Source: Candidatus Margulisiibacteriota bacterium
GTDB taxonomy: Bacteria > Margulisbacteria > WOR-1 > O2-12-FULL-45-9
Assembly (NCBI GenBank): GCA_034723395.1
Contig: JAYEOW010000043.1
Span: 1-29,467 of the forward strand
Length of the DNA: 29,467 nt
Direction: 5' to 3'
Shown here in pieces: positions 3,304 to 24,233 of this stretch. A program made the position numbers and the translations under genes. The notes below the pieces were generated by a model. It saw only the letters and a program-made list of their open reading frames with translations, searched no databases and was not told the origin of the DNA. The stretch's first letter is position 1, and each line of letters begins with the position of its first letter.

Positions 3304-4653
3304 ATGGTAGTTTCCGGCCCACCACCGAAAATAGGATCGACCCAGATCGTGGATGCGGCAAAACAGAGGATGGGCTTTTTGCAGCGGCATCCGCGTTTTA
3401 GGAACGCCCTGCTCAAATGGGCTCCGGCCGGAGGCGTTTTGGCTTTTGCTGCCGACCGTGCAGCTTCGGGGCTAGCTACTACTCCCGAAAGTTTGCTCTT
3501 TTCGGCCCTTGTCGGCGCGCTTGTCACGCTAGGCCTCGGCTGGATGGTAAATGTTATCGGTGGTGATAAACTGGTTGCCCAAGAGATGCAGTTACTGCAG
3601 GGTGAACTTGAAGCGGAGCGGGTGCGTTGCGGCGAGTGGGAGACTTACGCGGAGGAGCTGAATGAAGAACTTGGCAGGACGGGCGGAGAGTTTAAGCCCG
3701 AAGCCTTGATCTATTTACACGGTGAAGCAAAGGCGAAGTATAAAGTAATTAAAGTGTTGGGGGAAGGGGCGTTTGCAGTGGCGGTATTGGTCCACAATGA
3801 AACGCTGGGCAGGGAAGAGGTGTTGAAATGCTATCATCTTCAACATCTGGATAACGAAAACGCCCTGAAAAGCTTCGATAGGGAATGCATGACTTTAGCC
3901 GGTTTGTCGACAGGTAATCTTCATATACCGGAAATTTATGAGTATTTTTCTTATGATCCGGCGATGGACCCCTCACGGCAGCGGCTGTTAAATGGCCGCC
4001 CGGGTTTTTCCATGCAGTATGTTAAAGGGGAAGAGTTAACAAATTTAATTAGAAAAGGCCGGCTGAGCGTTGAAAAAGCGATAGGAATTACCCTGCAAAT
4101 TATAGAGGGGTTGGAGCCGGTCCACGCGAAAGGGGTTATTCACCGCGACCTGAAACCGGACAATATCAAAATTACAAAAGACGGGAAAGCATATTTGTTG
4201 GATTTTGGGATTGCCAAGGCGGTATCCGGGACGACCGTCAACCGGACCCAGCAGGCGATGGGGACGCCCGAATACATGTCCGTAGAACAATGGGATACTA
4301 CAAAAGGGATCGACGGGAGAACGGACCAATATTCGATAGGTGTAATTTTGTGGGAGATGCTGCACGGCGTTGTCCCTTTTCCAGCCAAAAACATTAATGA
4401 AGCGATGCATAACGCGTTTCACGCGCAAATCCCTGAAATTGGCGATTTTGGGGATGTCACGGCACATTTGAAGCATATATTAACAAAGATGCTGGCCAGA
4501 GACGCGGGGCAGCGTTACCCGTCCCTGAGTTTATTAAAAGAGCATTTAAAGAAAACGCTCGGAAAAGTCCAGGCAGTCAGCTATGAGATCGGAAACGAGG
4601 ATACAAGGTTAGGGCCTAATCCTTTACTGACCAAACAAGGGCGATCTGAATAA
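3304..4653 (+). CDS. Membrane-anchored Hanks-type Ser/Thr protein kinase
   Basis: N-terminal hydrophobic segment(s), an acidic coiled-coil, then GEGAFAVA, VLK, HRDLKPDN, DFGIAK, GTPEYMS. The ATG directly follows the stop of the upstream gene (TAAATG). Confidence 0.93.
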   Translation: MVVSGPPPKIGSTQIVDAAKQRMGFLQRHPRFRNALLKWAPAGGVLAFAADRAASGLATTPESLLFSALVGALVTLGLGWMVNVIGGDKLVAQEMQLLQGELEAERVRCGEWETYAEELNEELGRTGGEFKPEALIYLHGEAKAKYKVIKVLGEGAFAVAVLVHNETLGREEVLKCYHLQHLDNENALKSFDRECMTLAGLSTGNLHIPEIYEYFSYDPAMDPSRQRLLNGRPGFSMQYVKGEELTNLIRKGRLSVEKAIGITLQIIEGLEPVHAKGVIHRDLKPDNIKITKDGKAYLLDFGIAKAVSGTTVNRTQQAMGTPEYMSVEQWDTTKGIDGRTDQYSIGVILWEMLHGVVPFPAKNINEAMHNAFHAQIPEIGDFGDVTAHLKHILTKMLARDAGQRYPSLSLLKEHLKKTLGKVQAVSYEIGNEDTRLGPNPLLTKQGRSE

Positions 4654-4655
4654 GT

Positions 4656-4888
4656 GGGATAAATTATGATGGACATGATAGCGCCGGTACAAAATTTAAT
4701 AATACAATCAGATCCAAAGCCTCACAGCGCGTTATCTGCAGATAAGAAGCAATCTAAGCACTTCTGACGATACAATAGCCGACGCCGATCATTATTATGT
4801 CAGCTACATAAGGCCGGCAATGGGCGGAACGCTTGGAATATCGTGGATCCAGGTTGGCTTGGGAGCTATAACCGAAACATCTTCATAA
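4656..4888 (+). pseudogene. Mosaic relic: 5' end of the 649-aa gene + 3' part of a paralog of it + internal fragment of a porV paralog
   Basis: 4656-4710 is identical to 6485-6539. 4706-4776 matches 8328-8398 (59/71 by hand count). 4779-4885 matches 23390-23496 (97/107). Frameshift at the first junction; TAA at 4886. Confidence 0.9.
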
Positions 4889-4900
4889 CTCGAAAAGCCC

Positions 4901-4929
4901 TTGACAGATTAGCAAAAATAAAGCACACT
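4901..4929 (+). promoter_or_regulatory. Sigma70-type promoter TTGACA-N17-CACACT
   Basis: Perfect -35 and 17-nt spacer; an in-frame ATG begins 7 nt after the -10. Confidence 0.6.
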
Positions 4930-4935
4930 TTAGAT

Positions 4936-6165
4936 ATGCAAGGCAAAAGTGAATATATATTTAGATACCTGGAAAAAGCCCTAAGAAAGCTGATAAAAAA
5001 GAGATATTCGGCTTTGATCTTAGGTCCCCGACAGGTTGGGAAAACGACCACCGTCAGCAAATGCCTTGAAGATGTTGGAAATACTATTGAATATCCGCTG
5101 CAGGATCCATCAGTAAGGATTGAGCTGGAGGCAAACCCCTCCAGGATTATCGGCCAGGTTCAGGCACAAAAAGGTAGGCCGTACCTCTTTATCGATGAAG
5201 CTCAGAAGATACCAAAGATATTCGACGCGGTCCAGTTCCTGATCGACAATAAAAACGCTCAATGTATTTTAACCGGCTCTTCCGCCCGCAAATTGAGAAG
5301 GCATGGGGTAAATCTCCTTCCGGGAAGGGTCAAATATTTTCATATGGACCCGCTGGCATGGGGTGAATTAGGATTAGTAAAAGAGAATAATATCCTTCCC
5401 ATTAAAACGGCGAATATTAATAAAAAGGGCGATTACTCATTTGAGGAAGTCCTGGTTTATGGCTCTTTACCGGGGATCGCCTGCCTGCCCGAAAGGGAAC
5501 GCAAGGATTTCCTTAAATCCTATGCCAATATTTATCTCGAAGAAGAGATACGGGCGGAGGCTTTAAGCCGGAAGATCGGCGCTTTCTCAAGGTTCCTTGA
5601 ACTTGCCGCGGCCGGGTCGGGTTCGAGCCCCAATTTTACAAAATTATCCAATGAAGCCGGCGTCAGCCAGCCGGCGATCAAGGAATTCTACCGCATACTG
5701 GAAGACACCCTGATCGTAGAGAGGGTGGACCCGTATTTAAAAAGTGCGCGTAAGAGGATATTGTCTTCTTCACGCTATTATTTTTTTGATATAGGGGTCA
5801 GGAACGCCCTCGCGCGGGTCCCTCTGACCCGTCGCTCTATCAACGCCCAAAAAGGGGTTGTATTTGAACACGCGGTAATGCTTGAGATTATCCGGAGGAT
5901 CAGGATCCTCAATAAAAATTACAGGGTGTGCTACTGGAGGACCTCCGGCGGGGCCGAGGTGGATTGCGTTATTGATCTCGGGAACGCAATTATTCCGATT
6001 GAGATTAAAAGTTCGGCTTCTGTGGCCCTTTCAGAGATAAAAGGGTTAAAAAGCTTTCTGGATGATTATAAAAAAACGGCAAAGCATGGTTATGTCATTA
6101 CTATGGGAAACAGGAAGGAAAAACTATCTGATAATATCACCGCCTTACCCTGGTCATGCTTATGA
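4936..6165 (+). CDS. AAA+ ATPase, AAA_14 + DUF4143 family
   Basis: Walker A GPRQVGKTT, Walker B LFIDEAQ, LTGSS, YFFDIG, and C-terminal YWRT..EVD..IEIKS (PD-(D/E)xK-like). The ORF-track start at 4843 lies inside the porV relic, so the start was moved to ATG 4936. Confidence 0.92.
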   Translation: MQGKSEYIFRYLEKALRKLIKKRYSALILGPRQVGKTTTVSKCLEDVGNTIEYPLQDPSVRIELEANPSRIIGQVQAQKGRPYLFIDEAQKIPKIFDAVQFLIDNKNAQCILTGSSARKLRRHGVNLLPGRVKYFHMDPLAWGELGLVKENNILPIKTANINKKGDYSFEEVLVYGSLPGIACLPERERKDFLKSYANIYLEEEIRAEALSRKIGAFSRFLELAAAGSGSSPNFTKLSNEAGVSQPAIKEFYRILEDTLIVERVDPYLKSARKRILSSSRYYFFDIGVRNALARVPLTRRSINAQKGVVFEHAVMLEIIRRIRILNKNYRVCYWRTSGGAEVDCVIDLGNAIIPIEIKSSASVALSEIKGLKSFLDDYKKTAKHGYVITMGNRKEKLSDNITALPWSCL

Positions 6166-6427
6166 TCCCCGGAATATCTTGTGTTCCATAAATTCCTGTT
6201 GGACTTCCTCTTTGAGATAAGTTTCCACACAACTTTTTAACAGGCGAATTTTAGCTAACAGGGATGCAGGGGCAGGGTGATTGCCCGGTCTCCCAGCAGA
6301 TTTACGCCGGCGCGCTTTAATTTACAGACAATATTTGCGGGGCGAGATTGTTTGTTTCAGTCGGTTACGAATAATGTTCATCGGATATCGCTTACGGGAA
6401 ATTTTTTAAACAATTTGCTAAAAAAGT

Positions 6428-6454
6428 GAAATCGGCGCCAAAAGATGATGATAA
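6428..6454 (+). promoter_or_regulatory. Putative sigma28-like promoter GAAA-N15-GATGATAA
   Basis: 15-nt spacer. Shares AAAAAAGTGAAAT (6420-6432) with the motif at 1128-1140. Confidence 0.5.
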
Positions 6455-6494
6455 TGATATAGGAAGAATAAATATTGCGGCAGGGGGATAAATT

Positions 6495-8444
6495 ATGATG
6501 GACATGATAGCGCCGGTACAAAATTTAATAATACAATCAATCCAGAGTGAGGATGGCGGGACGGCGGCAGCTGCCGGGACGGTAGAAAGACCTGCCGCTT
6601 ATGTTACGGCGGACGCTTTGGGGCATTTTGTCGCGGTCGAGACCCCATGGTATAAGAGCGCGATAAACTGGGTTTCTGACGTCTGGAGGGCCAAGTCTGA
6701 CGGCGCTCCGGGCTGCGGGATTGGCGCGGAATTAATGTTCGACAAAGCGCGAAGATCGGATGGAGGGGTAGGTCCCGACGCCTCTGATGGCGGGCCGGAC
6801 GCGGCGGACAGCGGCCCTGACGCGGCGGACGCGGATGCCGGAGTTTGTGTGGACAACAATCCTCCGGGCGTTTTTGGCACTACGCAGCCGGAGGATAACG
6901 CCAGCGATGTTTCACTGCGGCCGACCTTTGAATGGGCCAATTCGACCGATCCGGACGGCCACACGGTCACATACGACCTGATGATCGACACCAACGCGGA
7001 TTTTACCAGCGCGGTTACTTATGACGCGAGTACGCTAAGACAGTACACATTGACCGATCCTCTGGCCGCGGACACGACTTATTACTGGAGGGTAGTGGCG
7101 AGGGATGTTTGTGACGCGGAGACAGTAAGCCTGCCGAGCCCGGCTTTTAGTTTCAAGACTTTGGCCGATTGTTCGACCAATCCTGGGACGTTTGATTTGG
7201 TCGATCCGGCGGACCAGGCCGATTGGGTATCGCTTACGCCGACTTTAGACTGGACCGATTCGCTCGATCTTGATCCCGGGGATACGGTTACTTACCGGCT
7301 GGAGATAGCCGATAATGCCCAGTTTAATAATTCGACAGTTTACTCCGGTTTAACTGAGAGCGCTTATACATTAAATGCCGGGGAGGCTTTGGCAAACGGG
7401 CAGACATATCATTGGCGCGTTTTTGCCGAAGATGACTGCCAGAATGAGGTTGCGAGCACAACTACCTATGAATTTACCACCGAACCTGCCTGTATCCCGC
7501 AGACGATCCTGGAAACCGATTTTGTGACCGGGGATGGGACGGATGTGGTGGTGAATGCGGGAAGTGTTTCATTAGGGGAAGACTATAGTGCTTGGACAGC
7601 TCATTATGAAGGAGATGTTGATCCAACTACTGTTGGCTGGTCAGAACAGGCCTCAAGTGGATGGGTTATCAACCAGATTAATTCAGGGTCTTTGCATCTT
7701 TCAACGATTGGATTGAATGACTCTGGGAGATATGAAAGAAATGCTGTTCCGTTTGGAAATACAAACGGATGGATCATTGAAACAAAAATGAGAGTAGTTA
7801 CGTCAGAACCTGAGGTTGGAAGCGATTATGGCTGTGGAATGGTAATTGGTGATAATAACCGGGTTTTAAGGCCGAGATTTTATACGGATCGAGTTGATAC
7901 AAATGATTATACAGGCCAATTCCTTCTTGATGGAACACAAACCCACACATATCGATTTATAGGGCAGGGCGATGACTTTTTTGTTTATGTTGACGGAAAT
8001 CTTGCTATTGATGGAACAGGCCAAATGGTTATTAATGCTTTAAATAATCGTCTGTATTTTGGTGATATCGGCTCTGACCCAGATTGTGATGCGTATTGGA
8101 ATTATATTTATTATTATACATTGGGTACTTCTTTACCATATGCACCGACAGGAGAATACATCTCCTCAACCTACGATCTCGGAGCCAACCCAAACAACAT
8201 CGGCTCCGGCGCGACGCTGGTCTTTAACGGAAGTGTCCTCCCTTCAACAACAATTACGATCGATACCCGCAGTGGAGATACGGCAATTCCTGACGGTACC
8301 TGGTCGTCCTGGCAGGGATTGAGCGGGAATCAGATCCAAAGCCCTGAGGCACGTTATTTGCAGATAAGAAGTAATTTAAGCGCATCTGATGATACAATTA
8401 CGCCGCAGTTGGATGATTATACGGTAGATTATTGCGCGTATTAA
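6495..8444 (+). CDS. Acidic extracellular-type protein: GCG motif, GPDA linker, two FN3/Ig-like domains, lectin/ConA-like beta module
   Basis: 649 aa, SD GGGGGA. Two P..W..S.D.D...VTY.L.I...YYWRV.A.D repeats. C-terminal ARYLQIRSNL...TPQL domain. No classical signal peptide. Confidence 0.85.
   Translation: MMDMIAPVQNLIIQSIQSEDGGTAAAAGTVERPAAYVTADALGHFVAVETPWYKSAINWVSDVWRAKSDGAPGCGIGAELMFDKARRSDGGVGPDASDGGPDAADSGPDAADADAGVCVDNNPPGVFGTTQPEDNASDVSLRPTFEWANSTDPDGHTVTYDLMIDTNADFTSAVTYDASTLRQYTLTDPLAADTTYYWRVVARDVCDAETVSLPSPAFSFKTLADCSTNPGTFDLVDPADQADWVSLTPTLDWTDSLDLDPGDTVTYRLEIADNAQFNNSTVYSGLTESAYTLNAGEALANGQTYHWRVFAEDDCQNEVASTTTYEFTTEPACIPQTILETDFVTGDGTDVVVNAGSVSLGEDYSAWTAHYEGDVDPTTVGWSEQASSGWVINQINSGSLHLSTIGLNDSGRYERNAVPFGNTNGWIIETKMRVVTSEPEVGSDYGCGMVIGDNNRVLRPRFYTDRVDTNDYTGQFLLDGTQTHTYRFIGQGDDFFVYVDGNLAIDGTGQMVINALNNRLYFGDIGSDPDCDAYWNYIYYYTLGTSLPYAPTGEYISSTYDLGANPNNIGSGATLVFNGSVLPSTTITIDTRSGDTAIPDGTWSSWQGLSGNQIQSPEARYLQIRSNLSASDDTITPQLDDYTVDYCAY
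6771..6833 (+). repeat. 3 x 21-bp imperfect tandem repeat (GPDASDG/GPDAADS/GPDAADA linker)
   Basis: Visible in both DNA and protein. Confidence 0.8.
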
Positions 8445-8588: not shown

Positions 8589-9215
8589 ATGAAAAAAATA
8601 GTAGTTTTATTGGTTATCGGATTGTTGTTATCTGGTATCGTTTTTGCGATGGGGGAGAAACCTCCAAAAATGGATCGAACTGAAATTCCACAAGAATGGA
8701 AAACTTATGTCAGCAAATATGGATTTTCAATATCATATCCTTCAAATTGGCAATTAACGCCGGCTGTAAATGCAAAGTCAATGGAGGAGAGCGAGAGATG
8801 GGCAAAAGAGGGATATGATTCATTCAGTATTTATTCGCCTTCTAATAATTCTAATGCGGGGTTAGCAATTGAATGCTTTACTGATACGGACACAGTAATA
8901 CAATTGTCTTATAAGGATATATCTATTCCTGATGACCCAGCAGGGCGGATATTGTTTTTAGCGAAAGAATCTCCCTTCACCATAAAGTACAAAAAAAATA
9001 TGATTAATAATATAGAAGAAATAAAAGTAAACGGAGGTCAGATATATCTAGTTCATGATAATACCGAATTTTCAGGGACAACAGTACTATTTTATTTAGA
9101 AAAAAAGAAGTTTTTTTGTGTTTTAGATGCCTATTATCCAAGCTCGACCCCAAATAAAGAAAAAGAATATAAGGAGATATTTATTAAGATTGTTAAAACA
9201 ATGAGTATTTTATGA
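8589..9215 (+). CDS. Exported protein, PsbP/Mog1-like start (WKTY..YGFSISYP.NW); candidate immunity/partner protein
   Basis: Sec signal MKKIVVLLVIGLLLSGIVFA, strong SD, AT-rich, ATGA overlap with the giant gene. Confidence 0.8.
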   Translation: MKKIVVLLVIGLLLSGIVFAMGEKPPKMDRTEIPQEWKTYVSKYGFSISYPSNWQLTPAVNAKSMEESERWAKEGYDSFSIYSPSNNSNAGLAIECFTDTDTVIQLSYKDISIPDDPAGRILFLAKESPFTIKYKKNMINNIEEIKVNGGQIYLVHDNTEFSGTTVLFYLEKKKFFCVLDAYYPSSTPNKEKEYKEIFIKIVKTMSIL

Positions 9216-12200
9216 TTAAATGTTTTAAAGTTATTTTAATATTATTCGTTTTATTTTGTAGTACGTCAATGGCGATTGCTGAATTTTCTGTAACCAGGGT
9301 CAAGCCAATTGACTACAACCCCAAAATAGAAAAGTATGGAAATTATATAAACCATAACTATGGTGAATATCGTGGAGGAGCTTCTTATAAATATCACGAC
9401 GGGTTCGATTATTATGCAAGAGGGGATCAGGTACTCCCCGTTTCCCCTGGCACTGCCCACGTTTACCCTGATCTAACAAAGAAAGTAATAAAGTCAACAA
9501 TTCCGGTTAATGAATTTGTTGCAGTTGAGAATTTATTTATTGATCCGACAAAAACGACCTTGGTGTTTAAGCCCAATATCACAGTTGCAAGCATTGAGAG
9601 CTGCTCTATCGTGGATGGAACAAAACTTATTTTGAAACAAGGCTTGGCAGGGGAAAATGAAGGCTGGGGGCATTGTGTTATAGTTGATCATGGAACATTC
9701 CAAACTCGCTATGCTCATTTAAGCAGGATTGATGTGTCAGAGGGGCAATGGGTGGATACTTCAATTGTGTTGGGGTTATCGGGGAACACGGGAAAATCAA
9801 GCGGAGAACATCTTCATTTTAGCATGGGAAATAATGGAGCGACTAAAAATAATCTTGCTCCAACAAACACGGAGAATCCCATACTCGCGGGGTTGAAACA
9901 GCCAAAATACGGTAAGATTGAAAAAGTTGCCTGCCCTAATGGTTTTGACATAAGATTATTAGCAACAGGAAAAGACGGGACATTTGGCGGATCAAACGGT
10001 GTGATCTTGAGCGATGCGAATGAAACGATCAATATTCCGAAACCTGGGCAACCACTAAAAGCAGTTATTAGTGCTTATCATTATACAGGCAGGGCTTATA
10101 CAACTCCGTACAAGATCGAATTTGAAGTTGAAAAGATTAGAGGGGCAAATGATTTTGTTAAACGGAAACGGGAGATTGTATTTGATTCAATTGCCAATAT
10201 TAACAAGATGACCGTTCCGCCGTATGACTTTTCCCGACCTTATGTTACTCAATCTAAAAGGACAGAAGATTATTATTCGGTTAAATTTACGCCGACAGCT
10301 GGAAGATATAGAATTACTGCAAAAATATATTCCTGCTATAGAGATGGTCCAGGCGATACCGGTTTTCATCTGTCTGATCCCCTGGTGGCTGAAAGGGAAA
10401 TAACCGTTGGTTTGAATGGCGCCAATCTCGATTGGTACGATCCTGCTGTTTCCTATGCCTGGTTACCGGACGATATCGCAAGCCGGGGGATTATGCTGGC
10501 CAGTGTGCCGACGCCGGTTGGGGCGGCGGGAGTGACAGCGAGTGATGCAACTGCTACATCAATACCGGAAGTATTCTATGCTTACGCGAACAATAATATT
10601 ATAACCAGTAACCTTATTGACGTTGATCAAAACCTCCAGCAGAAAGCATTAATCGAAGCGCGATCGACGCCGGAAGCGGACTGGCTAATTGAGATCAGGA
10701 ATAAATCCGGAGGACCTCCGGATCGTATTTCTGTCCCCAAATGCGGCTGGTTAAAACAGGAATGGGGCGCCGGGAAATCTGCTGGAGAATATACCATTAC
10801 AGTTACAGCGAGCAACTCCGCGGGGATAACAACTTATGAATCTTATGACACCATTACGATTGATAATACCAAGCCATCCGCGCTGGTTTATACCGTCACA
10901 AACAGCGTATCGACTGCGGAGCAAACAATTTCAACTCGGATCAGGCCATCTGAAAATTTAAGAAGCATGCTTGTCAATGTGGTCAAAGATGGAGATTATA
11001 ATTCTTTAGTTGAAGAAAGGATCTATTCGACTCCTTTTGCCGAAAAGGATAAAGAAGAAGCGGTTGATTGGGAAGACGCTATTGCTTACCCAGATGGCTT
11101 TTATCGCCTGCAATACGTAATGACCGATGTGGCGGGAAATATTGCAAAGGCCTATTCGCCGATCGTATCAGTTGATAAGAGCGGGGATTATACCGCGCCT
11201 TCTACCACAATCGAAGTGTCTGAACCCGCGCTGCCTGAATTGCCGAAATGGGAAGAGCGGCCGAAAGTGTCGGATGTCGCGTTCGACGATTCAGGCAATG
11301 AATATGTGTTATATGGACGCTATGATAAATTAATTAAATATAATTCAGCAGGCACAATGATTGCCTCAGTTGAAAGCCTGCGCAATCCCCTTGGCCTAGC
11401 CGTTTCCCCCTCCGGCGACCGAGTCTATGTAGCGGATACGTATAATAATCGGATGTTGATTTATGATGGGAAGTTACAGCCAATCAAGGAAATTAAAGGG
11501 AAAGATGTTTATGTTATCTATGGTGATGTGGATTCATATAGTTGGGGATTGGGCGGCATGAATCATTCAGGCGATGCTGGGGGTGGCGAGCATAGTTATT
11601 GGGGAGAGCAATTTGGGTTGCCAGAAGATATTGCGATATTAGGTAATAATGTTTATGTTGCAGACAAAGAAAAACATCGCGTCCTGAAATATGATCAAAA
11701 TGGCAAGTGTGAGGTCTTCTCGAAATTAAAGGCCGATTTAAAGAATGAAGCCCGTAATGCTTATAATCAAAATAATGTAATTTCCGGACGAACTGTTGAT
11801 AGAGCGTTATTTTATTCAAATTCTCTGAACGATCATATTTACTTTGATAAAGGTTCGGTTGATAAAAGCTCTTATGATCGCGGATGGATAAAAGAAATGT
11901 ATGGACATGATAATCCTCCTGGAGCGGGCGATAGTCAATTATTTTTACCAGAGTCGGTTATCGTCGATAATTATAGCTACATCTACATCCTCGACACCGG
12001 CAACCACCGCATCCAGAAATTTTCTCCTGATGGCTCTTTTATTTCCAAATTCGGTTCTGAAGGAAGCGGTCCCGGCCAGTTTAAATCACCTCAGGGGATA
12101 TTTATAGACGAAGACAACCACATCTGGGTGGCTGATACCGGGAACCGGAGGATCCAGGAGTTTAAAAATGATGGGACATTTCTTAAATCCTGGGGTAACG

Positions 12201-15200
12201 CGGAGCTGTTAAGCAAACCGTTAAAATTGGTTGTAAGAAAGGTCGGCAAGAATAAGGCGGTCTATGTGGCGGACGGAGATAAGGACGAAGTCCAAATCTT
12301 CGGGGCTTCGCCGCCTACGGACTTTAGTTTGACGGAAACAGGAGAACAGTTCGTTTCCGGCCGAACATTCACTATCAGCTGGGCAACTTCCGAGGCCGAT
12401 TGGTATGGGCTGAAGAAATATGAAGTTTACGGCAGGACTATCTATGAGGGTATGGACGAAAGCAGTGAAGAATCATGGGTATATCTTAAGAAAAACATTT
12501 CTCCCTCGGAAAATTCCGTGGAAATAACTTTGCCTTACGATGGGATATACGATGTTAAAGTAAAAGCTGTTGATAATAATGGAAATTGGAGGGATTCCGA
12601 TGGGGGGTCATCTTCTGGTGATTCAAGAGACTCATCTCGAATCCTTAGGGCGACAATTGATGCTATCCCGCCCCTTGGCTTTACCCTCGAAGATCCGCCA
12701 GATGGTTATTTAATTGACGGTAAAGACGTAAGGATTGCCTGGAGTGAAGCGCAAGACGAGAATCTTGATTATTACGAGCTTGTGGTCGGTATTGATATTG
12801 ATGATATTCACGAATCAGCAATCTATTCCGCGACATTTGAAGCCGCTGCTACCAGGGAAGTCTGGTTGAAAGATTTGCCCATAGGAAAATATTATATTTT
12901 CATGGCCACTTTTGATAAAGCGGGACATTATTGTCAGGTTAACGGAACAACCGACGTTGCGGGATATAGCTGGCCTGATCTTGCTTCTAATTGGGCTGGC
13001 AAATGGCCGTCCTTTGAAATCGATCCCATTCCTCCCTGGGCTTTTTCCATTTCAAATATCTACGATGGCCAGTATTTTGACGACCGTGATGTAAAAATTG
13101 AGTGGAATGAGGCATATGATACGAATTTAGACCATTATGAAGTATATATCGGAACGGAACAGAATAATATAATGGGAAGCGCGGTATTTACGGCATCTAT
13201 TGAGGCTTCAGCCAGCAGGGAGTGTTGGGCGAATCTTCCCGGAGGGACCTATTGGATTTATATGCGCGCCTGTGACGATCTTGGCAACTATCGCGGCCTG
13301 GATGGAAAAACCAATAGTTCAAAACACGATCTGGATCGAACAGATAATTTAGTGTGGTTTGAAATAGACCATGAACCGCCAGATATTGCTTACGATCCAA
13401 CAGTTGCCCCTCCGGCAACTAATCCCCATTTCTCACCGAATAATGACGGCAAGAAGGATTCGACCATTATCAATTATTATGTTGGCGATGATTCCTATTG
13501 GAAAGTTAACTATCTGCGCATGGATGAGGTTTTGATAGATATTGAAGGAGAGATCATAAAGGATGGAGAGGTTGTAAGGAGCTGGACATCCCGTTCGCCG
13601 CCTGGCTGGAATGAGTTTATCTGGGATGGCGGTTCCCCTCTCCCCCTGGGAGAGGGGGCAGGGGTGAGGGCGCCTGACGGCACTTATACTATTAAAATCA
13701 CAGCTGCCGACAAGGCCCTCAACACCGCCGCTGATGAATCGCTTACCGTAGCAGTCGATACCACTCCGCCGGAGATTAATAACATTGTTAACTCCGGAAT
13801 ATTTTCTCCTAATGGGGATGGGGAGTTTGATATAGATACTTTGAGCTTTGAACTATCGGACAATTTAGCAGAAGAACTGGCCACAACCATTGATGTGTTA
13901 AATCCGGCAAATGTTGTAATAAGGAGCGTTGAGGAACCGCGACGTTTAGTCGCAGGTTCCGATTCCATGTCCGTGGTCTGGGATGGCAAAGTGGGTGAGG
14001 TGGTACCTGACGGTGATTATACCTATCTCATCACCACCACCGACCAGGCTGGCAATCAAACCATCAACGATTCGGCATCAGTAACAGTTGATACTACGCC
14101 ACCTGCTTTTTCAGATGTTTCAACCTCTCCAAAGAGAGAAGTTGCTTTTACAGAAGACTCAGGCGCCCTTGATATCAATTTTACCGTTTCAGAAACAGCC
14201 AATGTCAGGATGGGAATCTATGACAGCAATTATTCTATGATCAGAGATTATCTGATTTCTGCTGAAACTGGAATAGCCAATACAATCTCCTGGGACGGGA
14301 GAGACAGCTTCGGTTCGCTTGCCCCGGATAATACTTATATAACCTACGCTTTCTCTGCCACAGACCGGGTGGCAAACTCTTCAGGCTACGCGTCAACCGA
14401 TATTGTGAGGGTTAAAACTCCGGTTACCGGCATGGCTGGAAATATTATATATAGTCCGGATGGAGCGGTGAAGATCATTATCCCCGCGGGCGCGGTAGCG
14501 GAGGGAACAGAACTATATCTTGATATTTTTGATACCCCCCCTGAAACATATACAGTTAACGAGAAGGATAATATTACGTTAACTTATAAACTATATCCTG
14601 AAGACCTTGAATTAAATAAACAGGCGACCATGGTTATCCATTACGATGAGAGCGTCTTGAATTTTGAGCATCAGCCGGTTGAGCTCTGGCGAAGGGGTTC
14701 GGCCTGGACAAAACTATATGGCAATACTCATAGCGATACCTTTACGGCGTATATTGAGAAGAGCGGAGAGTTCGCGTTGTTTGCTGATCTGACTCCGCCG
14801 GCCCCGCCGGTTATTGGTCAGCCGGCTTCTCCAACCAAGGAAGAGTCGATAATCATTGCTGGAACAGCCGAGCCTTATTCGAAGGTAGATTTATGGATCA
14901 ATGGGCTCAAAAGAAGTCCGCCGGTAAATGCTGGCGTTGACGGTAATTTTTCCGCGGGCATAGTCCTTTCGGAGGGCCAGAATTCTATCTATGGACAGGC
15001 GACCGACCAAACCGGTAATGTAAGCTCCGATTCAGGGATTATCAATGTTGAATTAGACACCACCCCTCCGGATATCACTTTAATCTCGCCGCAAACCATT
15101 TATATCTCGCCCAATGGGGATGGAATAAACGATGAGGTGGCAATTTCCGCGGATACCGACGGTGTTTCGATTGTAATCTCCGTGCGGGATAGTCTTGGAG

Positions 15201-18200
15201 CTGTTCTGGCTTCAAGTAATTCGGATACGCTTACCTGGGAAGACCCGTCGGTTGGCGAAGGAACTTATATATATGTGGTTAAAGCCTTTGACGCGCTGGG
15301 AAATGAAGCTAGAAAGCAGGGAGAGATTATTGTTGATAGGACCCTTCCGGAGGCATACCTGGAAGCATCTCCTATAACTTCTATCATCTCAGGCAATCTT
15401 GCCCTTTCGGGAATTGCGGAAGACAGCAATTTTGAAAGATATATTCTGGAATATGGGGCGGGAGGAACTCCATCAAGCTGGACCGAGATCAAACAGGGTT
15501 TTGTCTCGATTAATTATCAAAAATTTGATGACTTTGATACAACTATCCTGGCGGATGGAATTTATACCTTTAGATTAAGGGTCTATGATAAAGCGGGAAA
15601 TTCAAATTCTTCTTTGCTGAGTAAGCGCGCCATCAATTCAGAACTTTATGGAGAGATATCATCACCTGTATTAAATCAGGTGATTACGGGAACGGCTGAG
15701 GTCCATGGAAACATCACCGGAACATATTTTGCGGAATACAGAGTAGAGTATGGAGTTGGGGCAAGCCCCGCTTCCTGGATTACGATTGTGCGCTCTACCA
15801 CTCTCCCGGCAACATCGCTTCTGGCAGCCTGGGATACAAGCCGGGTTCCTGATGGTAATTATACTCTAAGGTTAAATGTGATAAATATTGGTGGGCGTTC
15901 TACTTATAATACTATTCCGGTTGTAGTAGACAACGGAAATCCAGGAGTTTCTATCACTGTTCCGACTTCAAACGCGATCCTTGGAGGAAATATCGAAGTC
16001 GGCGCGGAGATTTCTGATCCGAATTTCTCTTATTATCAAGTCGAATACGCGAGTTCGGATGACCCGAACAATTGGCAAATCATTCAGGATCAGACTTATA
16101 CGATTTCAACTCCTCTGGCAACCTGGGAAACAACGGGGTTAAATGGTGATTATATTATTAAGGTGACAGTGGTTGATGTAGTGGACAATAGTTCATTCGG
16201 CACGGTTATCATCACGGTTGACAATACGACTCCGGAAGCGGCAATTACACAGCCGACTGCGGGTCAGATTTTGAATAATACTGTCCAGATTTCAGGCGCT
16301 GCCAACGATCGGCATTTTTCAGATTACAAATTAGAATATGGTTTTGGGGCTAATCCTGCAAGCTGGACAGAAATCACAACTTCAACTATTCAAGTGGCTG
16401 CTGGAGAACTCGGCAGTTGGGATACGTCTACCTTAGGAACGGATGGGATTTATACCATAAAGCTTACGGTTACCGATCAAGCCGGGAATAGCTCGACCAG
16501 CCCGGTGTCGTTAACCATTGACAATACCAATCCGACCGCTTCGATTGCTTTTCCAACCAATAATCTGGTTATCGCGGATACGGTAAATATTCTTGGAACA
16601 GCGATTGACGAGGCGCACTTTAAGGAATTTAAGGTTGAGTATGGGGAGGGGGAGAATCCTTCCAGCTGGACGCAAATCGGAAACATACACTCTTCCTCAG
16701 TCTTTGGTTCTACCCTTGAAGCTTGGGATACGACCGCGGTAACAGATGGGACCTATACTCTGAAGTTAACAGTCGCGGACTTGCCCGGTAATTCAAGCTT
16801 GGATCAGGCGCCGGTTATTGTAGACAACACGCCGCCGACGGTCTCTATTTCCAATCCTTCTTCCGGAGATATTCTTGCCGGCGCCATAAACATTGCGGGA
16901 ACAGTTTCTGATGACAATCTTGATTCTATACTTTTAGAATATCGGGAAGCTTCCAGTCCCGAATCCTGGCAGGCGATAGCGGCCATAAACCCTTCAAATA
17001 TTGTGAACGATACTATTTATGATTGGAGCGCGTCCAGTCTAAATGGAGATTATATCGTCAGAGTTACCGCAACCGATAAAACCGGGAAAACCACCAGCGA
17101 CGAAGCGGGAATTCGACTGGATAATATTGATCCGGTTATAAATATCACAGCGCCAACCAACGAGTCGATCAATACAGGCGTTGTGGACTTCACTGGAGAA
17201 ATCTCTGATCTAAACCTGGATCAATATACCATCAAATACGGTTACGGTATTGAGCCGACCAGGTGGTTTAGTTTGGCTTCTGACACTGCGTCAAAGACTG
17301 GAACTATATATTCCTGGGATACGCCGAATGTTAAAGATGGTTACTATACAATAAAGGTTGACGCGGCTGACAAAGCAGGAAATTCGTCCAACCGTGAATT
17401 TGTAATAACTATTGATAATGCACCGGCAGTTGCAAAAATTCATGAGCCGACAGCTAACCAGGTTGTAAAAGGAACTGTCGCGGTATCCGGGATTGCCTGT
17501 GATGCTGATTTTACCACGTACAATTTTAAAAAGTATGAAATTAGTGTAGGGGCAGGGCTTGTCCCTGTCCAATGGACAACTATCGAAAGCCTCGTTGTTC
17601 CTAAGATCAATGAGACCTTAGCTAACTGGAATACTGCTCCACTTGCTGATGGAACTTACACTTTGAGGTTGAGAGCGGAAGATATAAGCGGGATAACCGA
17701 AGATACTAAAACAATTGTTATCGACAACACCCTGCCAACCGCTTCAATTTCTTCTCCATCTCAAGGGCAAACCGTAAACGGAAGCATTGAAATAACCGGC
17801 ACAGCTTCGGATACTAATATTGCTGAATATAAAGTTTATTACAAACAATCTAGTTCCAGCACCTGGACAGAGATCGGCAGTGGAACCTCGCCCCTCGTTG
17901 CTTCGACCCTCGCCGCATGGGATACAACAAATGTTGGTGATGGATCATATTCGATAAAGCTTTTGGTAAAAGACCAGGCCGGAAGTGAAAGTGAAATTAC
18001 AAGAGATGTAACGGTTAATAATGATTTAGCAATTGTTAATGACTCAGCATCTCCTGCAATTATATCTCCTAATGGTGACGGAGTAGATGATGTCGCGGAA
18101 ATCGGCTACACTCTTTCTGAAAATAGTCCGGTAACTGTTAAAATCTATAAGAAGCCGCAGTATGATAAGTTTAAGTGGGAAGCGAAGGGGTTTGGGACTT

Positions 18201-21200
18201 ATTATCCATGGCAGGACTTTTCTTATACCATTAACGCATCTGGGACCAATCATCCAAACCAATATTTTGATTATACTTTGAGCGCTTCAGGAACAGAATA
18301 TCCGCCGCAGGTGTTTGATTGGAAGGTGAATGGGTATGGGGTGGAAACTTATTATACTTATTCGCCAAAGACTAGTCCTACCGCATATGCTTATGCAGAT
18401 GATGACAAAGGAGTAGGAGAAAGCTCCACATTTTATCTAAACCATGACCAAACACCAGGACGATTCTACTTTAAAGCTATAGCTGATGGGAACAGTGGTT
18501 GGGATGATGCAAGGAAATATTGGGTATACAGACAAAATGGAAGTGCGTGGGAGGAGGTTTATTACCACCCAACTTATTGCGCAGGGGAATGGAGTTACAT
18601 CGGAAATGCTTCTATTGCAGATAACGGAAGATCGCCTGAATCCACTTTTTATCTTTCGCAAACGAAGTCATTACCGTTTTATGTTGGGACGGATAATAAT
18701 TGCAAAACTTCTGAGATATGGATATACAGGAAAGAAGGAGCCTCCTGGATCACATTTCATCATGAATTAAACCCCGCCGCAAATAAGTGGTTTTGGAAAT
18801 CGCTGACAGGAGGATACCTGTATAAGATTAAGCTTCGAGTAGAACCAAAAAGCGGCACTTATACCAGCGGTGGATTTTACGTGGATAACTTTACTTGGTC
18901 CGCAGGGACTTATAAATTAAAGGTATGGCTCGATGTAGGAATGTGGGATAGTTGCCATGTATATATGTGGATGGATTATAAGCAGAAAAATACATTATAT
19001 TCAAATGTTTCCGACTCCGATTCAGGAAAAGCTACAGTTGATCGAAATAACAATATTGTTTCAGGAAGTGGTAGTGATGCCTATGGCATAACTCTTTCGC
19101 CTCAACATCCGGGCGGCGCCATCAGCGGACATGAGATTGGTCGGGGATATGGAAATTATTATCATGACTATGCAGCCAACCCCTACGTTTCAACTTCTAT
19201 AAGCAACACCACATTTAGCGGAAACACCTGTTCTGGAACAATCAATGCCAGTTATAATTATCCTGGCCATTTGTGGAGTAGTAGCGTGAATCCAAATAAC
19301 AAGAGCTGTAGATCGGGACCAGGCAGTCCTGTAAATTATTCCGAAAGTATAAACAGTCTTATTGCTGTTGATCCGGATGTTCCTAGTCCCAACTTTGCTC
19401 TTTCTGGTAATACGAACTCAAGGGTTTCTCTACACTTCAGTAACGATGGGGCGTCTGTTGTGGGGAGTACTTCTTATGCTCCATCTTGGAGTGGTTCGGA
19501 CAATGATCCAGATTCCTGTAATGCTTTGCAAGGAACAATTACTGTTTCAGAATCGATGTCTAATAAATTTGGCGCTCCAAACGCCTATCCTGATTACAGA
19601 GAATATTCAAGCTTTTCAGTCTCCGATAATAATCCAAATGTTTCGGTTTGGTTTAACAATAGCGGCACAACTTCGACCTCTGATCCGAGTGATTATTTAA
19701 GAGCGAGCACTACGTATTCCGAATCCTGGGATACCTCTGATGATCCGGCGATAGGGAGTGCTGGCTGGATAAAAAGCGTAGAAATTTCGGCGCCGTTTAA
19801 CTACGACGAATCGTCTCAATCGTTTTCAACTGAATATACGCCTCCTTCAGATGTGGTTCTGAGCAGCTGGACGGTAAACCTTAAGAACCCCGATGGAGGA
19901 GCAAGCGCAGATGTTGCGCTGGATGGCACACCAACCGCAGCCGGAGACTTTAATGTTAAAATCTCCGACAGCTTATTGGTCAAGACCCTACAATACAATG
20001 CTTCAACTTCTCCTGGCAATCAAACAATCGAATGGGACGGCAAAAATAATAGCGGAGCCTATGTTGACGACGGAGAATATATCTATTACATTTACGCTGG
20101 ACCAAACATTGTTAAAAAATCTGGCGTGATTAAGGTCGAAAGGTCTTCAGAAATTAGCTCCACTTCATTATCAGAAGAATATATTTCTCCGAACAGTGAC
20201 GGGATAAAAGATAGTACAGCTATCAGCTACACGCTCTCAGAAAACGCTACAGTTAATATTGAAGTATCAGACAGTGATGGAACAGTTGTTAAATCTTTCT
20301 CTGCTTCTGGGAATCAAGGTGCTAATTCATCTTCCTGGGATGGCAGGGATAATGGTGGAACTGTAGTGGAAGACGGAGAATATTTGGTTAAAATAAACGC
20401 GACTAACGGTAATGGCGCTTTGCGTACCAAAGAACTTGCAGTAACTAAAGATAACAATAGCTTGACAGCAGGGGATGTCCCGGCAGAACAGCTTACATCT
20501 TCAGGCAATGATCCGGTTTACTCCCCGGACAAATCAAAAATCGCTTATGTGAAAGATATATCCGGCAAGAAACAAATACACACAATGAATCTACTTACAA
20601 CTAACAACTTACAACTAACAACTGACGGCAATAACCTGCAGCCAGCATGGTCTCCGGATGGAACAAAGTTAACCTGTACTTCAGACCGTTCGGGTAACAA
20701 TGACATTTGGATTATGGATGCTGATGGAGGCAATCAAAGGCAAATAACTTCCGATAATGATTCGGAGACTTCGCCGGCTTTTTCGCCGGACGGACAAAGG
20801 ATTGCTTATGCTTCAAATCGAACCGGAGAACTTGGTATTAACAAATGGAATATCTGGACGGTGGATCTGGACGGCACAAATCCAGCTCAAATAACCGCGG
20901 ATGAGAATACGGCCAAAGATGACTATCCGAGCTTTTCGCCGGACGGGAAAAAGATCGCTTTTGCTTCGGACCAAAGCGGGAATTTTGATGTTTGGAGTGT
21001 GAATCTCGATGGCAGCTCTAAAGCACAGATAACATCAAGTTCGGAAACAGAAACAATGCCTGCCTGGGCTCCAGATGCCTTAAAAATTGTTTACGCGAGA
21101 GATAACGATATATATCTTAGAGAGCTTTCAGGCGGGAGCGAAGTAAACATCGGAAGCGGAGAAAATCCTGCCTGGTCAAGAGACGGAACGGAGGTTGTCT

Positions 21201-23086: not shown

Positions 23087-24060
23087 GAAATAAAATCCTA
23101 ATGACCAAATCCCAAATCCCAACAATGTATGTCCTGCGGGCATTTATTATAATAATTATTTCATTGTTTGGATTTTTGATTTTTGATTTTGGATTTAATA
23201 TAGCGTACGCTCAAGCTCAGGGAGGACAAGACATCGCCGTCCTTAAGGCCGGCGTAGGCGCCCGTCCCTTAGGAATGGGCGGCGCATTCACCGCCGTAGC
23301 TGACACCGCCGATGCTCCATGCTGGAATCCGGGCGGCCTTGGTTTTGTTGACGATAACGAGATTACGTCAATGCAAACTAAGCTTTCAACCGACGCCGAT
23401 CATTATTACGTTAGTTATGTACGGCCTGCATTTGGCGGAACGCTTGGAATATCGTGGATCCAGGTTGGCTTGGGAACTATAACCGAAACATCTTCAGAAG
23501 TAGATGAACACAATGAAGTAATCGACCTGAGTACTTTTAGCTATTTTTCAAACGCGTATATGCTCTCATACGGTAAAAAGGTAAGTGAAAAACTATCTCT
23601 CGGATTAACCGCGCAATATTTGACTTCGGATATGACAAGTATCGACGGCGGACAGGCTTCTGGTTATAGCATAACACCAGGACTGCTTTTGAGGACAGGA
23701 AAAGGGTGGAACATCGGATTAAAAGTTGAAGGGGTTATCAATTCCTTGCAGTGGGGGACGGGGACGGTTGAGCAGGCGCCTGCCAAATTATGCTTAGGGT
23801 TTGCATACCAGAAGTCGAACCCTGGATTATTCGCGATCGATATTTCGCAAACAATGAAGTCCGGTTATGTTCCTGAAGCTTCGGTTGGCTACGAATGGAA
23901 TAAAGATAGTTTGTCTCTTCGGCTCGGATATGTCGAAAGCGGTTTAACTGCCGGAGCTGGATTTGTTTCAGGGAATGCCAGAGTCGATTACGCTTATATC
24001 ACCCAGAGGAATCTTACGACCTCTAATGTGCATAGGATTTCATTGACTGGGATTTGGTAA
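23083..24060 (+). CDS. porV: PorV/UPF0164-family outer-membrane beta-barrel (T9SS shuttle-like)
   Basis: Signature GVGARPLGMGGAFTAVAD...WNPGGL, plus LRLGY, VDYAY and terminal HRISLTGIW. ATGA overlap with the giant gene. Confidence 0.85.
   Translation: MRNKILMTKSQIPTMYVLRAFIIIIISLFGFLIFDFGFNIAYAQAQGGQDIAVLKAGVGARPLGMGGAFTAVADTADAPCWNPGGLGFVDDNEITSMQTKLSTDADHYYVSYVRPAFGGTLGISWIQVGLGTITETSSEVDEHNEVIDLSTFSYFSNAYMLSYGKKVSEKLSLGLTAQYLTSDMTSIDGGQASGYSITPGLLLRTGKGWNIGLKVEGVINSLQWGTGTVEQAPAKLCLGFAYQKSNPGLFAIDISQTMKSGYVPEASVGYEWNKDSLSLRLGYVESGLTAGAGFVSGNARVDYAYITQRNLTTSNVHRISLTGIW
23093..23196 (+). repeat. Inverted heptamer arrays (AAATCCC-type then TTGGATT/TTTGATT-type) in the porV signal-peptide region
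   Basis: aaatcct aatgacc aaatccc aaatccc ... ttggatt tttgatt tttgatt ttggatt. Confidence 0.65.
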
Positions 24061-24072
24061 GAAAGGGAAACA

Positions 24073-24220
24073 ACCCCTTCTTTCTCTCCCCCTTATAAAG
24101 GGGGAGATATCCGAAAAGTGTAGTGCAGGTCTTTAGACCTGTTATGAGACATCGACAAGTTTACTTTCTTCCCCTTAATAAGGGGAAGATGTCCCGACGA
24201 AAAGTCGGGGCAGAAGGGGT
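24073..24220. repeat. Intergenic cluster of REP-like hairpins bounded by the inverted repeat ACCCCTTCT/AGAAGGGGT; may also terminate transcription
   Basis: Stems at 24085-24107, 24126-24141 (preceded by GTAG), 24167-24189 and 24193-24209. Confidence 0.75.
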
Positions 24221-24233
24221 GGTAATAATAAGC

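Follow-up and report, generated by a model that had tools for sequence, protein, structure and literature searches.

A collapsed remnant beside a PorV/PorQ-family locus in Candidatus Margulisiibacteriota is very probably the relic of a second, diverged surface-protein unit

Redundant paralogues that are eroded by deletion leave pseudogene remnants, which are fragments of formerly selected genes with a frameshift and a microhomology junction, and the locus described here shares these traits. Short non-coding copies of part of a surface-linked gene, as found here, are also known as the template repeats of diversity-generating retroelements (DGRs) and as the silent cassettes of antigenic variation. 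Insertions that leave the target duplicated over a long stretch have been described for restriction-modification units by Furuta et al. 2010 (PMC2853133), and most of the cases are noted there to come from naturally competent species. Linear DNA that carried a single homology arm was recircularised in E. coli, whereby 109-950 bp of the target was duplicated, and the junctions of homology-facilitated illegitimate recombination (HFIR) lie at 3-10 bp microhomology (PMC3240628). Type B CTD substrates pair with cognate PorP/SprF barrels (PMC10202324). We found no literature on the present locus or on the porV cassettes of its lineage, subscription papers being mostly outside the search.

The window analysed here, meaning the whole stretch of 29,467 nucleotides, contains a Ser/Thr kinase gene followed by a composite of gene fragments, which we call the ghost, and an intact unit whose genes correspond to these fragments (Table 1). 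Self-BLASTN of the window gave exactly three strong off-diagonal matches at the ghost (E 4e-23, 2e-14 and 1e-36), which confirms the three pieces in the order of the intact locus (55/55, 59/71 and 97/107) reported in an initial annotation, and the two peptides quoted there are correct. That annotation had described a 233-bp ghost at 4656-4888, of which the location holds and the length does not, since the TAA at 4886-4888 is part of the upstream flank of the ATPase gene and the flank of a homologue aligns from 4886. The ghost therefore measures 230 bp and has its right edge at 4885 rather than 4888. A nonsense mutation at 4886 was rejected because this TAA aligns with the flank.

Table 1. Positions of the ghost pieces and of the genes around them in the window
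Feature	Position	Strand	Basis and remarks
Ser/Thr kinase gene	3304..4653	+	Pfam Pkinase E 3e-39; stop 12 bp before the ghost ATG
Ghost piece 1	4656..4710	+	RBS and codons 1-15 of the 649-aa gene; 55/55 identical to 6485-6539
Ghost piece 2	4706..4776	+	diverged copy of 649-aa codons 612-635; 59/71 (83%) to 8328-8398
Ghost piece 3	4779..4885	+	porV codons 104-138; 97/107 (91%) to 23390-23496
Intact AAA_14-DUF4143 ATPase-nuclease gene	4886..6165	+	includes its own TTGACA-type promoter flank; ATG 4936; Pfam
Dead second DUF4143 gene, fragment B	6175..6252	-	residues about 160-185; blastx
Dead second DUF4143 gene, fragment A	6261..6323	-	residues about 107-127; 19/21 residues identical to best homologue
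Ghost piece 4, porV C-terminal nine codons	6373..6399	+	tail HMM E 6.6e-5
Intact 649-aa Ig-like-domain gene with RBS	6485..8444	+	ORF; Pfam Ig_Rha78A_N, Big_5; twin of pieces 1 and 2
208-aa PsbP-like gene and 4624-aa M23/NHL/Ig/PD40/FlgD surface protein (giant gene)	8589..23086	+	ORFs, Pfam
Intact PorV/PorQ-family barrel gene (porV)	23083..24060	+	twin of pieces 3 and 4

The 5-bp microhomology AATCA is present at the first junction as annotated, and the similarity extends imperfectly beyond it (12/14 columns), the rough chance probability of at least 5 bp of microhomology at this junction being about 0.005. Compared to the intact genes, about 1.8 kb of the 649-aa gene is missing at junction 1 and about 15 kb at junction 2, where the two bases between pieces 2 and 3 (4777-4778) are unassigned. 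A 33-codon ORF that begins in piece 1 is frameshifted at junction 1 and then stops, and pieces 2 and 3 are joined in frame, have no start codon and end at 4885. There was no trace of the 208-aa gene or the giant gene in the ghost. It is the only such composite in this 1.68-Mb, 55-contig genome, where the 514 short repeat matches include 2 adjacent colinear pairs, both in the ghost. Self-BLASTN of 40 related regions gave no other three-piece composite, and the ghost is not conserved in any relative examined.

Overlooked in the first reading were the accessory ATPase genes inside the scar and a fourth ghost piece. The 319-bp 'spacer' at 6166-6484 contains piece 4 and the two fragments of a dead ATPase gene, which are colinear and jointly give a blastx E of 3e-12 (0/200 shuffles match), and the scar thus extends to about 4656-6400. 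The nine-residue motif of piece 4 occurs at 2 of 3.35 million six-frame genome positions, in piece 4 and intact porV only, and 7/9 codons differ between the two, all silently. A longer porV tail in 6260-6330 was dropped, as its two LTAGAGF-like matches sit on the dead ATPase fragment. With the porV tail of piece 4, the recognisable pieces run from the start of the 649-aa gene to the end of porV, and in total pieces 1-4 cover about 258 bp out of the 17,576 bp of the unit. Pieces 3 and 4 may have belonged to one porV gene. The intact ATPase gene falls into the candidate defence family PDC-S01 (PADLOC E 7e-72), and its best matches are 73-77% identical in families f13 and f10 versus no more than 45% within the family of the host, which makes a horizontal gain likely. 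DUF4143 is classed among the PD-(D/E)XK nucleases (PMC3424549).

The ghost shows colinear, above-chance homology to intact genes, a destroyed reading frame and a source under purifying selection, as expected for pseudogene remnants. Unlike usual eroded pseudogenes, it represents three genes' worth of cassette collapsed to four colinear pieces, with the ends homogenised. Mechanistically it is nothing new compared to eroded pseudogenes, and it is an ordinary genome scar.

Many mismatches in the ghost had been noted to be synonymous, and the conclusion that the pieces come from a formerly functional paralog stands: pieces 2 and 3 together comprise 58 codons with 22 differences, which change 6 residues, and none of the 3000 neutral simulations gave so few residue changes (0/3000). 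In the middle, consisting of piece 2 and the left part of piece 3 (37 codons), pS was 0.62, pN 0.079 and dS about 1.3, with comparable values for piece 2 alone (pS 0.56, pN 0.07), and both ghost ends are 98-100% identical to their intact twins. The numbers of differences were 0/55 in piece 1 versus 12/71 in piece 2 (p 0.001), and 9/44 in the diverged left part of piece 3 (4779-4822, 35/44 identical) versus 1/63 in the near-identical right part (4823-4885, 62/63 identical; Fisher p 0.0013). A middle near silent-site saturation together with near-identical ends implies that the copies were long diverged, and that the ends were re-homogenised or duplicated late. As judged from these base differences, the source of the ghost is a once-working, long-diverged gene copy and not a fresh duplication. 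Among 119 homologues, the replacements in piece 3 are found as I (for V) in 29, M (for F) in 3 and A in 1. Codon usage gave no separation of a resident from an incoming unit.

The porV product passes the NCBIfam model NF033709 (PorV/PorQ family) with 107.4 bits versus a cut-off of 90, and fails the T9SS PorV equivalog NF033710 (34.6 versus 250 bits). The closest porV protein is 79% identical, and the homologues bear the name of PorV/PorQ family proteins from Ca. Margulisiibacteriota or Saganbacteria. The search for relatives covered 65 genomes of the class, none of the same genus. In 24/26 loci with upstream DNA, the gene directly upstream of porV is the giant gene (22 by threshold, and L058 and L061 judged plain), and the giant gene and porV pair is a conserved unit, which in relatives often occurs in 2-4 copies per genome. 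The intact unit resembles described pairs of cargo and PorV-like barrel in that, at these 24/26 related loci, a giant protein with a FlgD/sorting-type tail is encoded beside a PorV/PorQ-family gene, and differs from those pairs in that it is found outside Bacteroidota and that its 649-aa gene lacks a sorting-type tail (PMC10202324).

The 649-like gene was present in 3/30 porV regions, twice on the opposite strand and once directly after porV (G010), and it lay upstream of giant gene and porV in 0/30 regions, several of which stop short of the giant-gene start. It was located directly 3' of the kinase gene in 5/6 loci (G017, G016, G055, G056 and G007, not G063; G058 was left out of this count, having a contig edge directly after the kinase), and in G055 and G056 the gap between the two genes is 12-13 bp, as at the ghost. 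The ghost thus occupies the native slot, since the 649-like gene usually follows the kinase directly with a similar gap. No sorting-tail match was found in the 649-aa product. The 649-aa gene is no conserved component of the porV cassette, and its supposed tie to the secretion locus is weak, considering its presence in 3/30 porV regions, its usual place after the kinase (5/6) and the lack of a sorting-tail match. An intact tandem cassette, which the initial annotation suggested looking for in related genomes, was not found among the 65 class genomes, none of the same genus, and neither was the old unit or an empty site. In JGI metagenomes, an exact 42-base pattern gave 0 matches, and 0 of 193 candidates for the porV protein were confirmed.

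Intact porV pairs within one genome (14 of 17 pairs computed, three G031 pairs being excluded) are 65-87% identical, and 6/14 contain exact runs of 55-98 bp. They show the same mosaic pattern that is seen in the ghost. Of the 26 loci, the two that deviate are 5'-truncated porV genes beside AbiEii-type genes. In one (G019:C1, L307:13278-17336), a 468-aa gene and then an AbiEi/AbiEii-type pair come after the truncated porV, and two porV-tail remnants (58 bp, 93%, and 83 bp, 88%) are interleaved with accessory genes and copies of the downstream flank; these are the only other orphan porV tails among 33 distinct motif sites. In the other (G006:C104, L310:6044-7883), porV is cut to residues 144-325 and adjoins an AbiEii-like match with an internal TGA. 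In G036, an ATPase gene of the PDC-S01/DUF4143 family directly follows porV. The mosaics, the collapsed porV cassettes and the tail remnants beside defence genes in relatives bear out the earlier suggestion of cassette turnover by recombination.

Several other arrangements were seen near these cassettes. At G017:C1:1-25000 (L121, L063), truncated N-termini of the giant gene (1078, 218 and 447 aa) alternate with five 208-aa-like genes in an array upstream of a full giant gene and porV. The orphan modules of polymorphic toxin loci resemble this array, which lies at the N-terminal end instead. In G016 (L061), two 208-aa-like genes stand in tandem. ORFs that we take to be recombinase-like lie beside some giant-gene/porV cassettes (L061:2703-4738, L062:18708-20000 and L065:2904-3773), and at L061 a 169-bp, 99% inverted repeat brackets the ORF.

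Direct repeats of 20-135 bp flank 17/55 DUF4143 genes of the class versus 13/548 other ORFs of 300-470 aa (Fisher 9e-12), the DUF4143 loci having been picked by search and related loci not being independent in these counts. The repeats are mostly gene ends, one copy live and one dead. Some of these gene ends are presumably those of gyrB, ksgA and mdh. In the ungapped coding repeats (8/16), 31 silent and 13 replacement codons were counted, of which one repeat supplies 16 and 9. In 15/16 cases, the upstream copy ends 35-129 bp before the ATG of the ATPase gene, and piece 3 ends 50 bp before it. Repeats also flank Fic genes (4/23, 7 of 30 left out) and AbiEii operons (5/28, 2 of 30 left out), together 9/51, with p 0.12 versus DUF4143 and 2.5e-5 versus background. 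Mobility specific to DUF4143 was therefore not supported (17/55 versus 9/51, p 0.12), and the almost equal frequency of such scars at Fic and AbiEii genes argues for a mark of accessory-gene gain in general. In other phyla, 12/57 DUF4143 loci had repeats (23 of 80 skipped, with no control set). A second DUF4143 gene of the same genome (G000:C20:21104-22378) has in its flank the 3' end of an 827-aa gene, copied over 34 bp.

Pfam detected no integrase or transposase among the 11 ORFs of the window, which contains 0 tRNA/tmRNA genes and does not have the marks of an integrase-driven, att-flanked element. The locus is like the long-target-duplication cases in having an accessory nuclease-type gene flanked by host-sequence repeats of more than 30 bp, with no integrase or transposase among the window ORFs (PMC2853133). 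The sizes given for those cases, an insert below 20 kb and a repeat above 30 bp, also agree with its periods of 1,829 and 18,611 bp and repeats of 55 and 63 bp. Unlike those units, the ghost locus has no R and M gene pair, the insert being a PDC-S01 AAA_14-DUF4143 gene, and its repeats consist of pieces, nested and in part long diverged, from a 17.6-kb unit later deleted down (PMC2853133). It further resembles single-crossover insertion-duplication or HFIR in having one homology arm, a short microhomology junction and a target duplication, with the difference that the published result comes from laboratory conjugation in E. coli and that classical HFIR deletes and does not duplicate (PMC3240628). 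The genome contains the competence genes comEC and dprA, which says little, as 10-11/14 control genomes have them too.

Support for the assembly was sought in Logan contigs of the public run X1, which showed 0 differences over 4200-4685, 4681-4841 and 4835-6514, with depths of 15.5, 12.4 and 15.5, respectively. This match is not independent support, since X1 may be the source sample. The initial annotation had named reads that do not span the junctions as the sign of a chimera. Contigs bridge junctions 2 and 3 exactly, and to the left of junction 1 they extend over only 25-30 letters (<31). Runs X2 and X3 did not contain the stretch. No X1 contig covered 6538-9200, an absence of cover that proves nothing. 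Another X1 contig over 4786-4852 has 9 differences from the ghost, a depth of 31.6, and matches intact porV. A further contig of 56 bp over 4786-4841 has 6 differences from the ghost and a depth of 10.9; its ends and difference count indicate that it carries the letters of intact porV up to 4811 and those of the ghost at 4816, 4820 and 4822. This chimeric contig would point to recombination between such porV copies. Rough X1 depths were 33-38 at the porV 3' part, about 24 at piece 1 and 15.5 at the flanks, depth not being equal to copy number. Read cautiously, this suggests that the sample contains more near-identical porV copies than the assembly, recombining with the ghost or with its source.

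Taken together, the ghost is very probably the dead relic of a second, diverged, once-working unit, a core that is common to the explanation we favour and to the two leading alternatives discussed below. In the favoured explanation, which we consider probable to a modest degree, 4656-4885 and the porV tail at 6373-6399 would be what is left, some 1.5%, of an older '649-aa gene ... porV' unit, diverged for a long time, that stood directly after the kinase gene and before the intact unit. In a first step, two forms of the unit, diverged under selection, would have become tandem, probably by recombination with DNA of a relative. ATPase genes would then have inserted at the old porV tail, leaving the duplicated tail seen as piece 4, like accessory genes across the class. 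Recombination or gene conversion with the neighbouring unit may subsequently have equalised the 649-aa start and porV codons 118-138. Finally, the redundant unit would have been erased by at least three deletions, of about 1.8 kb at the microhomology, of about 15 kb if the giant gene was present, and of what remained of porV as far as the ATPase promoter, besides further ones in the dead ATPase gene, and the remnant would now be without function. The giant and 208-aa genes are only presumed to have been part of the old unit, since no trace of either survives, and against this explanation, no relative was found with a 649-like gene upstream of giant gene and porV. The earlier proposal that the '649-aa gene ... 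porV' unit was duplicated and then deleted down is thus upheld for its extent, as piece 4 takes the remnant to the porV end, and revised for a simple duplication, given a middle with pS 0.62 versus ends that are 98-100% identical. As a dead remnant, the ghost would matter little by itself, and it would be a clean record of surface-protein cassette turnover in an uncultured phylum: diverged versions in tandem, accessory genes at gene ends with a duplicated tail, and a spare unit cut to about 1.5%.

A single event might also have produced most of the scar, which we regard as unlikely, though far from negligible. An 18.6-kb piece from a relative, containing the ATPase gene, the dead ATPase gene, the porV tail, the 649-aa, 208-aa and giant genes and the 5' part of porV, would have integrated by one crossover in porV, duplicating codons 118-138 (63 bp). 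The resident porV would thereby have been cut at codon 138, the orphaned resident unit would have collapsed, and piece 1 would have been homogenised separately. The identity changes sharply at 4822/4823 from 35/44 to 62/63, 63 bp is within the 20-135 bp range of the repeats around ATPase genes, and the distance of 50 bp between the end of piece 3 and the ATG compares with 35-129 bp in 15/16 cases. The extra X1 allele has the same polarity, with the crossover a few bases further left, and the recircularised linear DNA in E. coli likewise duplicated 109-950 bp (PMC3240628). However, such an integration requires that piece 4 is a separate, older, donor-borne remnant and that piece 1 was converted separately. 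Moreover, other ATPase repeats usually differ silently (31 versus 13 codons, 8 repeats), unlike this near-identical pair, and equally long exact runs also occur between intact porV paralogues.

A broader form of this idea, which we hold to be doubtful, is that Margulisbacteria swap whole giant-adhesin cassettes by the recombinase-free route that spreads single defence genes. The 18.6-kb PDC-S01-headed unit would have integrated with a 63-bp duplication in porV, porV genes would serve as landing pads, and the ghost would still donate to live porV. If this were true, the scar would be a footprint of ongoing surface-protein switching without a dedicated recombinase, and insertion that duplicates the target without a recombinase would extend to adhesin units of 18 kb, which is testable in strain-resolved reads.

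Alternatively, and improbably in our view, a 1.83-kb circle from another lineage, consisting of piece 2, piece 3, ATPase gene, spacer and piece 1, integrated at the resident 649-aa start, duplicating 55 bp. This would fit the 55/55 identity of piece 1 and its left edge at the kinase stop, and in G039 an ATPase gene has a 5'-end remnant on its upstream side and the intact gene on its downstream side (112 bp, 81%). It leaves the 62/63 identity of the right part of piece 3 unexplained, however, and merely moves the question of where pieces 2-4 came from to a donor. In addition, elsewhere the upstream repeat abuts the ATPase promoter, whereas here 175 bp of other ghost pieces intervene.

It is very unlikely that the remnant has been kept for a function, be it as a silent conversion donor for porV, as an antisense RNA against the 649-aa RBS, or as a kinase-coupled 33-residue peptide. 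The chimeric porV allele in X1 would suit a conversion donor, and a minus-strand promoter-like site (4820-4791) and a terminator-like site (4560-4540) bracket pieces 1-2. Such sites are nevertheless at chance level (5 promoters versus 3.9 +/- 2.3 in shuffled sequences, and 1 terminator versus 2.6 +/- 2.0), and a structured RNA was rejected, as both strands fold worse than shuffles (z +1.07 and +1.30) and Rfam gave 0 matches at E <= 1 in the ghost. Furthermore, the ghost is a single copy, not conserved in the relatives examined, and the three changes passed on alter one residue only.

An assembly chimera or collapsed strain mixture is highly improbable. As an exact repeat of 55 bp, piece 1 exceeds the 31-letter words of the contigs, so that contigs cannot pair the kinase with piece 2, and X1 contains more than one porV allele. 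Pieces 2, 3-left and 4, however, carry letters found nowhere else in the genome, and junctions 2 and 3 are crossed by exact contigs whose depth equals that of both flanks. A tandem duplication that arose recently in place, was deleted down and decayed neutrally can practically be dismissed. It would suit the identical ends, the tandem order and the 1.8-kb spacing, but neutral decay is incompatible with pS 0.62 and pN 0.079 and with 0/55 beside 12/71 differences (p 0.001).

A DGR was rejected, as the ghost bases at the 22 mismatches are 6 A, 9 C, 4 G and 3 T, showing no adenine bias, and genome G000 (97% complete) gave 0 matches to reverse transcriptase PF00078. The assembly contains one ghost copy, and not the several silent copies of silent-cassette systems.

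The 649-aa gene (6495-8444) has a GC3 of 0.59 in codons 1-350, 0.29 in codons 351-560 and 0.51 in codons 561-649, which suggests that it is itself mosaic, with a swapped middle domain. Short palindromic intergenic repeats at 24067-24223 are common to contigs C24, C39, C40 and C46. The contig end (29331-29467) is also found at the starts of C45 and C11 (126-138 bp), and this repeat broke the assembly.
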